A stretch of 52,089 bases of DNA from an archaeon (lineage in GTDB: Archaea > Nanobdellota > Nanobdellia > Pacearchaeales > GW2011-AR1): assembly GCA_043797265.1 (NCBI GenBank), contig JAZDPV010000001.1:1-52089 (forward strand), given 5' to 3'. The notes under the pieces were generated by a model. That model was not told the DNA's origin. It searched no databases and saw only the letters and a program-made list of their open reading frames with translations. Position numbers and translations under genes: made by a program. Below are positions 18,024 to 39,780 of this stretch, piece by piece (within the stretch, counting starts at the first letter, position 1; every line of letters starts with the position of its first letter).

Positions 18024-18055
18024 ATTTAAATACAATACCTCAATAATTCTAACAA

Positions 18056-18128
18056 GCCGCAGTAGCTCAGCAGGTAGAGCGTTACATTGGTAATGTAAAG
18101 GTCGAGAGTTCAAACCTCTCCTGTGGCT
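18056..18128 (+). tRNA. tRNA-Thr(GGT)
   Basis: Acceptor GCCGCAG/CTGTGGC; anticodon arm TTACA-TTGGTAA-TGTAA; T loop TTCAAAC. Confidence 0.95.
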
Positions 18129-18224
18129 TAGTGACCTTTACGTAAAGGTTAAGCAATTCGCTTCGAGCAACAAAATAATTAAAGATTATTGCGAAATGCA
18201 AATTGCGAACAAAAAGCGAACAAA

Positions 18225-25387: not shown

Positions 25388-25948
25388 TCAAAACTCAACA
25401 CTCTCAGCAATCTGTTTCGACGACATTCCCAAACTTGTCCCAAACGCTTTCCTGCCTTTCTCGTCGATAACTTCACTCTCGCTCAAACCAAGCGACGCAA
25501 TCCCAATCCTACATCCCGCCTTCCGGCAAACTTTCACATTCTGAATAATTCTCCCCAACCTCAACGCCTTTTCTTTTCCATTCAACTTTCCAACTTCCGA
25601 CATATCAACAACAACTAAAATATTTTTCTCTTTCGCAATCTTCGCGACGACGTGATTGATTCCCGAATCTCTTTGTTTCAATGTATCGCTTTTCGTTCCC
25701 CGCTCAGGCGAAATCAAATAATCAATCCGCAAAGTCTCGACAATCCGTCGATTAAACGCATCATCCCCGCCGACAATCCCAATCTTTTTATCAGAACCTT
25801 TCAGTGAATCAACAATCCTCCGAGCTTCCTTTTCCGTCGCCCCAATTAAATATCCATCGCAAGAATCATCACCAAAAATCCCCTCCTTCGATTTAACCTT
25901 CTTTAGATAAATAGAACCTTTCAAATTAAATAAATTAATATCTCCCAT
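25388..25948 (-). CDS. rnp3: RNase P protein subunit p30 (Rpp30)
   Basis: FNRRIVE, LISPE, DTLKQRDSGINHVVAKIAKEKNI. Confidence 0.85.
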   Translation of the reverse strand: MGDINLFNLKGSIYLKKVKSKEGIFGDDSCDGYLIGATEKEARRIVDSLKGSDKKIGIVGGDDAFNRRIVETLRIDYLISPERGTKSDTLKQRDSGINHVVAKIAKEKNILVVVDMSEVGKLNGKEKALRLGRIIQNVKVCRKAGCRIGIASLGLSESEVIDEKGRKAFGTSLGMSSKQIAESVEF

Positions 25949-25949
25949 A

Positions 25950-26783
25950 TCATAAATTGTCCAAAGGACTTTTTATATTCTCCAGTTTTTGATTAGAAAC
26001 ATGAGTATAAATTTCTGTCGTAGAAACATCACTATGTCCAAGCAACTTCTGAATATATCGAATATCAACTCCCTGCTCCAAAAGATGCGTCGCAAAACTA
26101 TGTCGAAGCATATGTGGGTGAATCCTAATTCCAATTTTCTTTCCAAGTCTCTCTAAAACTTTTTGAACAGACTTCTTACTATATTTCCTGCCATCTCTCC
26201 CTTCAAAAACATAATCCGTTCGAAATTTCATAGAGCTATAATATTTCAATAAATCATCCTTCAAATTATCAGACAAAATACTAATTCTATCTTTCTTCCC
26301 CTTACCCAGCCTAACCAAAATCAGTCCCCTGTCAAAATCAATATCACTTCTTTTTAAATTCAACAACTCCGAAAGCCGAAGTCCAGAAGAATAAAACAAC
26401 TTCACAATCAATCGATGTTTTATGTTATCACAAGCCTCAATCATTTCTTTTATTTTTTCAGCACTAATAACTTTCGGCAAAGTTTGTTCTTTTTTCTTTA
26501 TAGGAATTTGCTCAAAATCAAACGGTTTATTCAATATTTCACGAAAAAAGAAAGCCACCGCGGCATATTTTAACCTCATAGAATTAACCGACAAATTATC
26601 GCAAGACAAAAGATAAGATTTAACACTTTCATTAGATAGATTAAGACTACATTTATGACAATAATCTATGAATCCCATAATATGAAAATTATATGACCTA
26701 ATCGTTTGAACACTAAACCCATGTAATTTACACCTATTGATTATTCTATTTTGATATTCAGACCGAACATTCTGATAATACAT
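25950..26783 (-). CDS. Tyrosine recombinase (XerD/IntI-like) with SAM-like N-terminal domain
   Basis: GLRLSE, GKGKKDR, HMLRHSFATHLLE, LLGH, EIYTH: full catalytic set; start could be TTG 26792 or ATG 26783. Confidence 0.95.
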   Translation of the reverse strand: MYYQNVRSEYQNRIINRCKLHGFSVQTIRSYNFHIMGFIDYCHKCSLNLSNESVKSYLLSCDNLSVNSMRLKYAAVAFFFREILNKPFDFEQIPIKKKEQTLPKVISAEKIKEMIEACDNIKHRLIVKLFYSSGLRLSELLNLKRSDIDFDRGLILVRLGKGKKDRISILSDNLKDDLLKYYSSMKFRTDYVFEGRDGRKYSKKSVQKVLERLGKKIGIRIHPHMLRHSFATHLLEQGVDIRYIQKLLGHSDVSTTEIYTHVSNQKLENIKSPLDNL

Positions 26784-26835
26784 CAGCGACAAAATAATAA
26801 CATTTATTTAAATTCTCGTTGAAATTATAAAATTA

Positions 26836-26878
26836 TAACATCTACTAGATAGATTTGTATATCTAATAGATGTTAGCC
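26836..26878. other. attI-like recombination site: 40-bp palindrome ending in GTTAGCC
   Basis: TAACATCTA-C-TAGATA-N8-TATCTA-A-TAGATGTTA directly upstream of the recombinase; GTTRRRY-like core. Confidence 0.6.
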
Positions 26879-27086
26879 AAAATTTTCTTACTGCCTCCTA
26901 GCGTCGGTAAACCTCAAATTCTGATTTTGATATCTTCGTTTAACGCTCCAATGCGAAATTAAAATTGTCGCATAACATCGCTGATTAAACGAAATTGCTG
27001 AAAATAAAAACTAAAATTGTCTACCTAACCCCCACGGAAAGAGCGCGCGAGTTTTCTACGAAAACAGATAGTCGGCTTCGCCGAAA

Positions 27087-27353
27087 TTATTTTAATTCTT
27101 TTGCAACTTTTTCGCCATCTTTTGTTCTTCTGTAAATCCTTCCTGTTCTTTCTTCAGGGTTTACAACTTCAACTAATTTCTTTTCTTTCAATTCAGACAA
27201 TGCACGAGAAACAAGATTGAAATAAGTATTGCTGTTGCTTTTGTAAATTTTTATAACCAATTCAGAGGGCATCAGAGGTTTATCTAAATTCATAAAAACC
27301 TCTTTCCTATTCTTCCCTCTTTTTACAAAACCTATTGCTTTTAGCAATTCCAT
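27087..27353 (-). CDS. Winged-helix (ArsR/MarR-like) regulator
   Basis: PLMPSEL...VSRALSELKEKKLVE...GRIYRRT. Confidence 0.85.
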   Translation of the reverse strand: MELLKAIGFVKRGKNRKEVFMNLDKPLMPSELVIKIYKSNSNTYFNLVSRALSELKEKKLVEVVNPEERTGRIYRRTKDGEKVAKELK

Positions 27354-27460
27354 AGCAATCTATAAGCAATTTGGCTTAAGAAACAAATTCAACAATCTAT
27401 TAGCAAATTGTAAACGAAAAAAGAAAAGTTTTTAAAGGAGTTATTACACATTAATTCATT

Positions 27461-27970
27461 ATGGCGAAAGAAAATCATACCTACCAAATTATTTCGGTAA
27501 TTCTTTTAGTTGCGGTAATCACTTTTGCAGGATTATATTTTACAAAATCTGCTCCTTCACAAGAAATAAACGAACAAACTTGTTCAGATTTTATTAACGA
27601 ATGCCCAGAAATTCCGGCAGAAAAGGCTTTAATATTTGGAGCTTTAAATTCTTGGGGAGAAAATCTTTATGACTCTAGTAAAAATCTCTTTACTGTGGAA
27701 ATTTATAATTTTGGAAATGTTGAAGCAAGAAATGTAGAAGTAATATGCGATGTTACTGTTGGAGATGAAGATGGATATGAGGTGTCAGATATTCCCGTAT
27801 CAACAGTTACAAAAAGGATTGGAAATGTAGCATCAACATCTTACAAATATGTAGACCTTGAAAACAATATAAACAAACAGAAAGAAGGGAATTATCCTCT
27901 TGCAAGCTGTCGTATAAGTTATTGTGAAAACTGTGAAATTTTATCTGACAGAATTCCCGATTTAGAATAA
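27461..27970 (+). CDS. Membrane-anchored exported protein, Ig/CARDB-like
   Basis: N-terminal TM; VEIYNFGNVEARNVEV; several Cys. Confidence 0.75.
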   Translation: MAKENHTYQIISVILLVAVITFAGLYFTKSAPSQEINEQTCSDFINECPEIPAEKALIFGALNSWGENLYDSSKNLFTVEIYNFGNVEARNVEVICDVTVGDEDGYEVSDIPVSTVTKRIGNVASTSYKYVDLENNINKQKEGNYPLASCRISYCENCEILSDRIPDLE

Positions 27971-27971
27971 A

Positions 27972-28331
27972 ATGTTTTTCATATTTGGTTGGGGACATAG
28001 AAATATAAAAAATTTTGGTCAAACTCTTGTCCAAAAATGTCCTGTTTGTTCTCACACTTCTCATTATTCTCTTGTAAGAACAAGAGATTGGTTTACTTTA
28101 TTTTTTATTCCAATCTTTCCCTATGAAACAAAATATTATTTAGAATGTCCTGTTTGTAAAAATGCTTTTGAATTAGAGAATGAAAACAACATAGAAAAGT
28201 TAAAAGAAATCGCGGAACTTATAGAAAAATTTGACAATAAAGAAGTAACAAAGAAAGAATTAAACAAACAATATAATAGTTTAGTGAAAGAAATAAAACC
28301 AGAAACAAAAGAAGAAGATGAAGAAGATTAA
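27972..28331 (+). CDS. Zinc-ribbon protein (zinc_ribbon_15-like)
   Basis: MFFIFG...CPVC...WFTLFFIPIFP...CPVC. Confidence 0.88.
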   Translation: MFFIFGWGHRNIKNFGQTLVQKCPVCSHTSHYSLVRTRDWFTLFFIPIFPYETKYYLECPVCKNAFELENENNIEKLKEIAELIEKFDNKEVTKKELNKQYNSLVKEIKPETKEEDEED

Positions 28332-28501
28332 TTTTCTTTTTTAGAAAAAAAGAAACAAAAAAGCGCGCTCTAAAACCAACGACAATTTTAAAGACAATTT
28401 TCAGCAACTACGATATCAAAGAATTTTCGGCAGTAAAAAAACTCTCTCCGCTACGCTCCGAGCCACGCCTTGCAGGCTCTCCTCACTTCGTTCGTCGGGT
28501 C

Positions 28502-28611
28502 GGCTAACAGCGATTAAAGAGAAAATCCTTGCAGGATTTTCCCAAATTAATTTCTCATCCAGCTCGTAAACTCGCGGGAGAAATTAACTTTCTTTAATCG
28601 CGATGTTAAAC
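28502..28611. other. attC-like site (110 bp)
   Basis: TAACA-GCGATTAAAGA pairs with TCTTTAATCGC-GA-TGTTA (2-nt bulge); two internal hairpins GAAAATCCT/AGGATTTTC and TTAATTTCTC/GAGAAATTAA. Confidence 0.7.
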
Positions 28612-28645
28612 CCAAAAAATCCGCCCTCATCCGCGAAATCCGTGG

Positions 28646-29338
28646 TTAAAATTTCTCTCCTCTAATAATAGTCCCAACAAACTTCTTCCCACGCAAAATC
28701 CCATCAATCGCTTTCAACGACCCGACGATATAAGTTACAATCTTCTCGTCCCGAATTACCCTCGCCGCCGATTGGTCCAAAACAAAATGCTGCCCCGCTT
28801 CAAACTTAATTTTCCTAAACATCCCATAAAAATCATCCCAGCTAATCCTCGAAATAAATCGCGCTCCCTTGTTCGTCTTCGGATTCGCGCTATAAAGCCC
28901 CCGAACATTCGTCAAGTTAATAAACGAACATCCCAAATATCCAGCCAACTTCGCCGCAGTCCCGTCGCTGGTATTTTTCCTGTAATATCTCAACGCCCCG
29001 CAAAACACAACCCGATTTTTTCTCAACAAATTCTTAACCCTTTTCATGTTCAACGGCACATCCTCATTAGCGACCTTCCCAAAAATTCTCGCCATAAACC
29101 CGGCATGCAATCTTGTCACCACAATCCCCTCCATCGACCGCGCTTTCATCCCCTTCTTTAACTTTTTCAACGCTCCCATATACCTCCGCGCCGTCGACCC
29201 CCCACCAGTCACGACGACAAACCTCTTGTCTCCATGCGAATCCAGCAATCGCTTAAACCTAACCAAAAATTTATCATCGACATCATCCGGCACAATCCTC
29301 GACCCACCCAGCGAAATCACCCAAACTTTTTCCATCAT
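28646..29338 (-). CDS. pyrH: UMP kinase
   Basis: VISLGGS, VVTGGGSTAR, TSDGTAA, NLTNVRGLY, AGQHFVLD. Confidence 0.93.
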   Translation of the reverse strand: MMEKVWVISLGGSRIVPDDVDDKFLVRFKRLLDSHGDKRFVVVTGGGSTARRYMGALKKLKKGMKARSMEGIVVTRLHAGFMARIFGKVANEDVPLNMKRVKNLLRKNRVVFCGALRYYRKNTSDGTAAKLAGYLGCSFINLTNVRGLYSANPKTNKGARFISRISWDDFYGMFRKIKFEAGQHFVLDQSAARVIRDEKIVTYIVGSLKAIDGILRGKKFVGTIIRGEKF

Positions 29339-31082: not shown

Positions 31083-31157
31083 ATCAAAATTAAGAAGACC
31101 TTATTTATAAAAGTATTGGGAAGAGGATAATAAATATAAATTTATTATAAATTTATA

Positions 31158-31228
31158 TGGGCGCAGGAGGAATCAAACCCCCGCCTCCCGGGCTGGAGCC
31201 GAGCAGACTATCATTATCCGATGCACCC
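31158..31228 (-). tRNA. tRNA-Trp(CCA)
   Basis: Acceptor GGGTGCA/TGCGCCC; anticodon arm CTCGG-CTCCAGC-CCGGG; atypical A19 and T56. Confidence 0.8.
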
Positions 31229-31268
31229 AATATAAAAATAAAGATAACACATCTTTTAAATTTAATCA

Positions 31269-38757: not shown

Positions 38758-38792
38758 CTTCCATCAACTATTCTCTCGCAACTTCGTCGCGA

Positions 38793-38864
38793 GGCGGAAG
38801 CCGAGAATCGAACTCGGGCCGTTCGGACCACAACCGAACATTCTGCCATTAAACTACAACCGCC
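38793..38864 (-). tRNA. tRNA-His(GTG) with encoded G-1 and C73
   Basis: Anticodon arm TTCGG-TTGTGGT-CCGAA; T arm CCGAG-TTCGATT-CTCGG; two T:T mismatches in the acceptor stem. Confidence 0.9.
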
Positions 38865-39707: not shown

Positions 39708-39780
39708 GCTCGCGTAGTCTAGTGGCCAAGGACACTGCCCTTTCACGGCAGTAACCCGGGTTCAAATCCCGGCGTGAGCA
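39708..39780 (+). tRNA. tRNA-Glu(TTC)
   Basis: Acceptor GCTCGCG/CGTGAGC; anticodon arm CTGCC-CTTTCAC-GGCAG; T loop TTCAAAT. Confidence 0.96.

Follow-up and report, generated by a model that had tools for sequence, protein, structure and literature searches.

We analysed a stretch of 52,089 nucleotides (nt) of contig JAZDPV010000001.1 (assembly GCA_043797265.1; hereafter the window, meaning the full stretch), which comes from an archaeon of the order Pacearchaeales with a genome of 625 kb (completeness 83 per cent). Between pyrH and rnp3 the window carries a 2.7-kb insertion of low guanine-plus-cytosine (GC) content (25949–28645), which is very probably a small integron-like platform made up of a XerA-family tyrosine recombinase, a palindromic attI-like site, one gene cassette, and an attC-like site. 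The recombinase gene (25950..26792, minus strand) is an intact open reading frame (ORF) of 280 amino acids, or 277 if read from the probable ATG start, and its stop codon is 1 nt away from the start of rnp3. Upstream of it, the attI-like site (26836..26878, plus strand) is a 40-bp palindrome with arms (26836–26851 and 26860–26875) of 16 nt each that are 94 per cent complementary and 8 nt apart. Its right end holds the 7-mer GTTAGCC (26872–26878) and the crossover position G|TT (26872|26873). The cassette (26873..28605, plus strand; 1733 bp) consists of a leader, three ORFs, a trailer, and a folded site, and it is delimited by the rule that relates the R'' and R' boxes of successive sites and by homology breaks in metagenome contigs, both described below.

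The attC-like site (28502..28611, plus strand; 110 nt) scores 102.3 bits against R1, the covariance model that we built for the folded site. It opens with R'' (GGCTAAC, 28502–28508), followed by A28509, which pairs with T28604, by L'' (28510–28521), and by an inner hairpin (28522–28540). Beyond a variable part, it closes with L' (28589–28601), a bulge formed by the unpaired G28602 and A28603, and R' (GTTAAAC, 28605–28611). An earlier note on this DNA, made from the letters alone, had described a 40-bp palindrome ending in GTTAGCC, a complete tyrosine recombinase gene that points away from it, three AT-rich cargo genes, a 110-nt hairpin with a 2-nt bulge running from GGCTAAC (28502) to GTTAAAC, a location between pyrH and rnp3, and an enzyme without the I2 insert specific to IntI. 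Our analysis agrees with this description on each point.

Specifically, the recombinase is assigned to the XerA family by profile. It scores 235.8 bits against NF040815 (recomb_XerA_Arch), above the cut-off of 220 for that equivalog, and it fails both the integron integrase profile TIGR02249 (195.2 bits; cut-off 265) and NF011946 (134.8 bits; cut-off 435). Its best solved relatives are the XerA proteins of Pyrococcus abyssi (4a8e; E-value = 1.3e-50), to which residues 9–272 are collinear in one stretch, and of Thermoplasma (5hxy). Against Vibrio IntI4 (2a3v), the enzyme aligns in two separate parts (query residues 26–181 and 206–279), and because only 24 query residues face 66 residues of IntI4 between these parts, we conclude that the IntI insert is absent. 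Likewise, positions ~181–236 of the TIGR02249 profile have no match in any of the hits from the genus. The columns of R136, K164, H224, R227, H250, and Y259, which we take to be the catalytic residues of tyrosine recombinases, are invariant in an alignment of 26 recombinase sequences. Canonical IntI is not represented in the genus at the level of the integron-integrase cut-off, which none of 49 genomes reach, and a screen based on IntI would therefore miss the system, as the earlier note had anticipated. The named archaeal relatives retrieved for the recombinase are all metagenome-assembled genomes (MAGs) of Pacearchaeota and Woesearchaeota.

Within the window alone, the complementarity of the two 7-mers is weak evidence, because GTTAGCC and GGCTAAC occur 9 and 10 times, respectively, in the 625-kb genome; the fold of a 321-nt region also has a z-score of only -1.8. 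The significance of the locus derives from its relatives, through covariation and the R''/R' rule. A search with the DNA at 28340–28645 found matches in 33 of the 48 other genomes of the genus, often several per contig and on one strand. Fifteen well-formed sites that we aligned share a branched plan: nnnnAAC, a single A, a stem, a conserved inner hairpin, a variable part, and the returning stem followed by GAT and GTTnnnn. In this alignment, 90.1 per cent of the cells are paired and 12 of 23 pairs have compensatory changes on both sides, a result that none of 500 shuffles equalled; slid controls pair in 34–53 per cent of cells. The inner hairpin, which played no part in the choice of sites, is 94 per cent paired, with five of its seven pairs covarying. 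A generic scan for AAC...GTT hairpins gave many chance matches in AT-rich DNA and was abandoned; homology and the covariance model were used in its place.

The R1 model matches 36 of the 48 other genomes of the genus, with at most 11 sites per genome. When 151 genomes from across the order were sampled, 51 of them, belonging to 33 of 84 genera, had a match. As a negative control, the model was run on 320 kb of DNA surrounding 38 relatives of the recombinase in other, mostly bacterial, lineages, where it has no match. The retrieved loci hold 139 distinct R1 sites, 82–191 nt in length, with AAC in 130 and GTT in 124 of them; in 84, GAT precedes GTT on the 3' arm, opposite a single A. Cassettes have a median spacing of 773 nt (71 cassettes), and in 53 of 54 loci every site is on the same strand. 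The sole opposite-strand match in these 54 loci (L136:10778-10923, plus strand, in G130:C10) is located between the array and the recombinase gene and may be a palindromic attI matched in reverse. In the host genome, the only other candidate site is a weak second R1 match on contig C5 (12407–12583; 28.1 bits, E-value = 0.0012).

Integrons follow a characteristic junction rule. Once an attC is integrated, its final six bases are part of the cassette that follows, and R'' should therefore complement the R' tail of the previous site and not its own R'. Of 41 pairs of neighbouring sites in a first set of loci, 17 show exact complementarity between R'' and the R' of the preceding site (shuffles: mean 2.39, maximum 9; none of 10,000 reach 17). 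An independent set from other genera gives 19 of 43 pairs (shuffle mean 2.47), and one array (L140) is a perfect chain of five. A site's R'' and its own R' are exact complements in only 4 of 71 sites.

The same relationship holds between the first cassette and the attI-like site. In 13 of 19 loci, including that of the window, the reverse complement of the R'' of the first site occurs exactly once between the recombinase gene and that site. This 7-mer lies 41–93 nt upstream of the gene and in most cases directly follows an inverted repeat, and the attI types change together with the subtype of the recombinase. At the start of another host contig (C7:1-40), the sequence is similar to the attI palindrome's right half, including its GATGTGTT end; it may be a second attI-like site or an array cut by the assembly.

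Arrays are tied to one group of recombinases. Twenty-four genes of the genus score at least 195 bits against the window recombinase. In 17 of them, a folded site that points away from the gene is present on the 5' side; for six of the other seven, the contig extends no more than 970 nt in that direction. None of the lower-scoring full-length recombinase genes of the genus has a folded site within 10 kb. A phylogeny of 46 recombinases divides them into two groups of 23 across a branch with full support (approximate likelihood ratio test in its Shimodaira–Hasegawa-like form [SH-aLRT], 100). The group that contains the window enzyme, which we call clade A, includes all 16 array-adjacent genes (16/23) together with four genes cut by contig ends, whereas in the other group (clade B) the count is 0/23. 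Clade A therefore denotes the array-linked clade of the XerA family. Profiles do not separate the two clades, as XerA scores are 203–240 bits for clade A (some of them below the cut-off of 220) and 214–231 bits for clade B.

The host genome also encodes a clade B paralog (C18:84862-85668), which is 37 per cent identical to the window enzyme. A neighbouring gene is retained in 12 of 12 loci of the clade to which this paralog belongs, and that clade is therefore presumably the vertically inherited housekeeping XerA. Unlike such a single-copy, vertically inherited gene, clade A genes sit in changing chromosomal contexts. A pattern search of the host genome for a dif site gave no convincing candidate. 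The assemblies break 36–970 nt upstream of clade A genes in 6 of 24 cases (G023:C22, G003:C26, G004:C23, G048:C29, G052:C1, and G061:C5), as would be expected if arrays were repetitive or variable within populations. A wider search of genome contigs with the recombinase returned 600 relatives, mostly bacterial and swamped by generic Xer motifs, and says little about the distribution of clade A. Some bacterial recombinases (L143-L156, from Bacteroidota and others) are 39–46 per cent identical to the window enzyme over the full length, also lack the insert, and are about as close to it as other archaeal subtypes are; no R1-type site was found within 6 kb of them.

Comparison of related loci shows that the cargo is variable. 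In the relative G060, the recombinase (61 per cent identical) resides beside a different gene, in another chromosomal context, and is followed by a 200-nt leader that is 94 per cent identical to 26894–27095, then by different ORFs, and then by two hairpin sites; the trailer is shared as well. In G047, the start of the window cassette follows the GTT of an upstream site, as the second cassette of an array. Leader, trailer, and folded site also occur on metagenome contigs from four runs of four studies, in some cases with perfect identity. In two metagenome contigs, homology begins at 26871 and the letters before it are different; in the one from groundwater, these preceding letters resemble the attI palindrome of another subtype. 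A further contig matches 28495–28607 exactly and then diverges, and a contig from sediment holds a relative of the entire cassette (~95 per cent identical) with a 332-letter replacement. Joints between 27003–27010 and 28397–28399 in short contigs were set aside, as they fall inside the leader/trailer inverted repeat and are possible assembly artefacts. More broadly, the modules at 26871–27092 and 28333–28607 occur in lake, groundwater, and sediment metagenomes with identities of up to 100 per cent. The summed contig depths of the leader, trailer, and site modules are far above those of the cargo, and no single cassette is nearly as widespread as these modules.

These observations bear on what the earlier note had asked of the relatives. 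Relatives do carry different cargo with junctions at GTT (the cargo of G060 differs, and contigs break at 26871 and ~28607), similar hairpins do lie near homologous recombinases (those 17 of 24 genes), and the enzyme, XerA-like by profile, does stand in a clade apart from the syntenic C18 paralog. The note's view of a non-canonical cassette-capture system is thus supported by the junction rule, the clade link, and the variable cargo.

The non-coding leader (26873..27086, plus strand) and trailer (28332..28501, plus strand) of the window cassette are common to many cassettes. The leader is 94 per cent identical to that of G060 over 26894–27095 and 81–99 per cent identical to those in other arrays; for the trailer, one metagenome contig is identical over 28333–28481. 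The two modules are inverted repeats of each other (26990–27021 with 28381–28412). When they are joined in silico, as at the junction of a circular cassette, the predicted fold of the single-stranded DNA has an energy of -96.7 kcal/mol, compared to -39.0 +/- 3.9 kcal/mol for 20 shuffles; in this fold 57 trailer–leader pairs are predicted, and the R box pairs across the junction. Because leader and trailer pair in the predicted fold, the functional site may be a palindrome of ~450 nt in the circular form.

Between these modules lie the three cargo ORFs. The first (27087..27353, minus strand) encodes a small winged-helix-like protein of 88 amino acids, with weak matches to the Pfam families DUF4364 and HVO_A0261_N that are below cut-off. 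The second (27461..27970, plus strand) encodes a Cys-rich protein of 169 amino acids that has a hydrophobic N-terminal stretch and matches no family, and the third (27972..28331, plus strand) encodes a zinc-ribbon protein of 119 amino acids (Pfam Zn_ribbon_15, 47 bits; cut-off 28.9). A comparison with known defence systems by PADLOC gave nothing above noise for the three proteins, and their genes were not found in the loci of relatives that we examined.

The flanks of the insertion are native. To the left is rnp3 (25388..25948, minus strand), which encodes ribonuclease P (RNase P) protein component 3 and matches Pfam RNase_P_p30 and NCBIfam RNaseP3 below their cut-offs. To the right is pyrH (28646..29338, minus strand), which encodes an archaeal uridine monophosphate (UMP) kinase (TIGR02076, 138 bits, below the cut-off of 158; Pfam AA_kinase). 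The intervening 28612..28645 is the 3' flank of pyrH and not cassette DNA, as a closely similar stretch follows pyrH in G015 (L041), where there is no recombinase. GC contents of the recombinase gene (31.8 per cent) and the cargo (29.4 per cent) compare to 41.7 per cent for rnp3, 46 per cent for pyrH, and 38.6 per cent for the window. At gathering thresholds, Rfam detects four transfer RNAs (tRNAs) in the whole window and nothing else; these are ordinary genes for tRNAs specific for Thr, Trp, His, and Glu (18055–18129, 31157–31229, 38791–38864, and 39708–39780).

Among 26 pyrH loci of relatives, rnp3 lies at most 60 nt downstream of pyrH in 14, the two genes are separated by 214–887 nt in five, and rnp3 is missing from the stretch examined in seven, some of which are contig ends. 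One of these gaps (214 nt; L044 in G019:C2) contains an apparent decayed 3' arm of a folded site, in which ATT replaces GTT. In G023, the closest relative (pyrH 78 per cent identical), a recombinase of another subtype (44 per cent identical) occupies the same spot beside rnp3, on a contig that stops 125 nt upstream of the gene. The decayed arm and the recombinase of G023 suggest that the spacer between pyrH and rnp3 is a recurrent or old home of such platforms.

If the system works like an integron, the clade A recombinase would bind the paired R box (nnnnAAC/GTTnnnn) and the L box of the folded site, a fold that may arise on single-stranded DNA or by cruciform extrusion. A strand would be cut and exchanged between G and TT, and a circular cassette would be inserted at attI or excised between two sites. 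In IntI systems, the strand is marked by extrahelical bases together with the I2 helix; here, that role probably falls to the conserved 2-nt bulge, which is usually GA and precedes TGTT. In the circular form, pairing of the conserved leader and trailer would extend the site to the palindrome of ~450 nt. The I2 insert was reportedly found by Messier and Roy in 2001 to be necessary for IntI activity; if so, the clade A enzyme must handle folded sites in another way.

That reported requirement is the first of several points that weigh against an integron-like platform run by the adjacent recombinase. The covariation of helix 1 and the outer stem is partly circular, because pairing of the arms was used to pick the sites. 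The canonical consensus is poorly followed, with GTTRRRY in 24 and RYYYAAC in 25 of the 139 R' and R'' boxes, respectively. The orientation bias of the ORFs is weak, as the longest ORF runs with the array in 45 cassettes and opposes it in 26. The junction rule fails in 24 of 41 and in 24 of 43 neighbouring pairs, and the attI 7-mer test fails in 6 of 19 loci, including that of the closest ortholog (G044; 88 per cent identity); missed or decayed sites are a plausible cause of these failures. Sixteen genomes of the genus, with completeness of 69–91 per cent, have folded sites and no full clade A gene. Finally, no circle or empty attI was seen for the locus, and no public run holds more than 12 per cent of the words of the stretch.

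Two alternatives assign the recombination to enzymes other than the one beside the array. The arrays could be ordinary clusters of attC sites lacking integron-integrases (CALINs), served in trans by a canonical IntI encoded elsewhere in the genome or in other organisms, with the XerA-like gene a bystander. The genomes that have sites and no full clade A gene fit this explanation, as do the published counts of 539 attC sites and six IntIs in 75 archaeal MAGs, from a source whose relevant passages also state that CALINs can be used by exogenous IntIs (PMC9668308). We nonetheless regard it as very unlikely, because arrays start 41–93 nt upstream of the clade A gene, with the first-cassette rule followed in 13 of 19 loci, and adjacency is confined to one clade (16/23 versus 0/23). 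Moreover, no genome of the genus encodes a protein above the IntI cut-off, and most R boxes deviate from the IntI consensus. Alternatively, the housekeeping XerA encoded on contig C18 might recombine the sites as mimics of dif, with the clade A gene a redundant or regulatory copy. The two clades are indeed alike on the XerA profile, and sites are present in genomes where the housekeeping type alone was found; yet none of the 23 genes outside clade A in the tree is array-adjacent, the lower-scoring full-length genes of the genus have no site nearby, and the attI types follow the clade A subtype. We consider a role for the housekeeping enzyme unlikely.

A different kind of explanation dispenses with recombination and takes the repeats for structured non-coding RNAs, or for terminator or promoter modules that recur between the genes of a hypervariable island. 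Covariation alone cannot separate folding of DNA from folding of RNA, and the leader and trailer modules (200–270 nt) exceed any known attC and end in small GC hairpins beside ORFs. A search of 26780–28680 against Rfam, however, yielded no family even at E-values of up to 10 (chance-level matches only), and ARAGORN found nothing in the region, for which reason an RNA gene was set aside. Nor would RNAs or terminators be expected to have an R'' that complements the tail of the previous site in preference to its own (36/84 versus 4/71), homology that breaks exactly at GTT, or a constant placement beside one clade of recombinases. This makes such modules an extremely improbable account of the repeats. 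We therefore retain the integron-like platform with a clade A recombinase as the interpretation of 25949–28645.

Beyond the single locus, we lean, with some reserve, towards the proposal that, throughout the whole order of these small archaea, cassette arrays with folded hairpins have as their native integrase a dedicated branch of XerA without the IntI insert. If true, this would explain why surveys of archaea find attC-type arrays almost always without IntI, and the I2 domain would be dispensable for recombination at structured hairpins. In that case, the system either arose independently from Xer or represents the ancestral state of bacterial integron integrases. Both the definition of integron integrases and the searches for them rely on an extra domain that is reported to be necessary for activity. 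If a plain XerA-type enzyme runs the arrays, IntI-based screens undercount such systems, there is an alternative structural solution for the recognition of folded attC sites, and the evolutionary link between Xer and IntI becomes testable in a minimal natural unit, in which a single recombinase is combined with one attI, one cassette, and one folded site. For very small, host-dependent archaea, the system is also a likely route of gene flow.

In the only published survey of integrons in archaea, Ghaly et al. (2022; PMC9668308) describe integrons in 75 archaeal MAGs, with six IntIs and 539 attCs, most of them as CALINs, and define IntI by its specific domain. We found no report of a XerA-type integrase associated with such arrays in the literature on XerA/attC cassettes, archaeal integrons, and DPANN integrons, a search that did not extend to the supplementary MAG and attC lists of PMC9668308. 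The system has several features in common with integrons: its tyrosine recombinase gene points away from a site of the attI type, its short cassettes form arrays on one strand, and each cassette ends in an imperfect inverted repeat with AAC...GTT boxes, unpaired bases, and crossover at G|TT; in both, R'' complements the leading bases of its own cassette and not the adjoining R' tail. It differs from integrons in that its recombinase has no IntI-specific domain and scores below the cut-offs of the IntI profiles, and in that most R boxes depart from RYYYAAC/GTTRRRY. Moreover, its sites are branched, with a conserved inner hairpin, and the attI-like site of the window is itself a palindrome. Its cassettes also have conserved leader and trailer modules of 170–270 nt that pair with each other, the orientation bias of its ORFs is weak, and the window cassette holds three ORFs.

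The enzyme itself resembles archaeal XerA, to which it belongs by profile and by its best solved relatives, and with which it shares its length and the lack of an insert. According to the pertinent section of Cortez et al. (2010; PMC2958812), the dif of Thermococcales is a single site of 28 bp, in which arms of 11 bp flank a spacer of 6 bp, and it does not adjoin xerA. Here, in contrast, the sites are many, 82–191 nt long, and folded, bound variable genes, and begin beside the recombinase gene, whose product does not share a clade with the syntenic XerA that these genomes also encode. In bacteria, Xer-dependent modules, such as the dif modules of Acinetobacter plasmids and integrative mobile elements exploiting Xer (IMEX), rely on the housekeeping XerC/D acting on double-stranded dif-like sites, and dif modules are flanked by inverted sites. 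As in those systems, a Xer-type recombinase, and not an integrase with extra domains, would move gene modules bounded by short sites, whereas the archaeal sites are direct, form hairpins, and follow the integron junction rule, with a dedicated paralog beside the array. The Vibrio cholerae repeats are long, homogeneous chromosomal attC sites in large sedentary arrays that are served by a canonical IntI (VchIntIA, 2a3v). The archaeal sites are likewise long, mutually similar within a lineage, and found in large sedentary arrays, and they differ from the Vibrio cholerae repeats by their added conserved inner hairpin and by the pairing leader and trailer modules.

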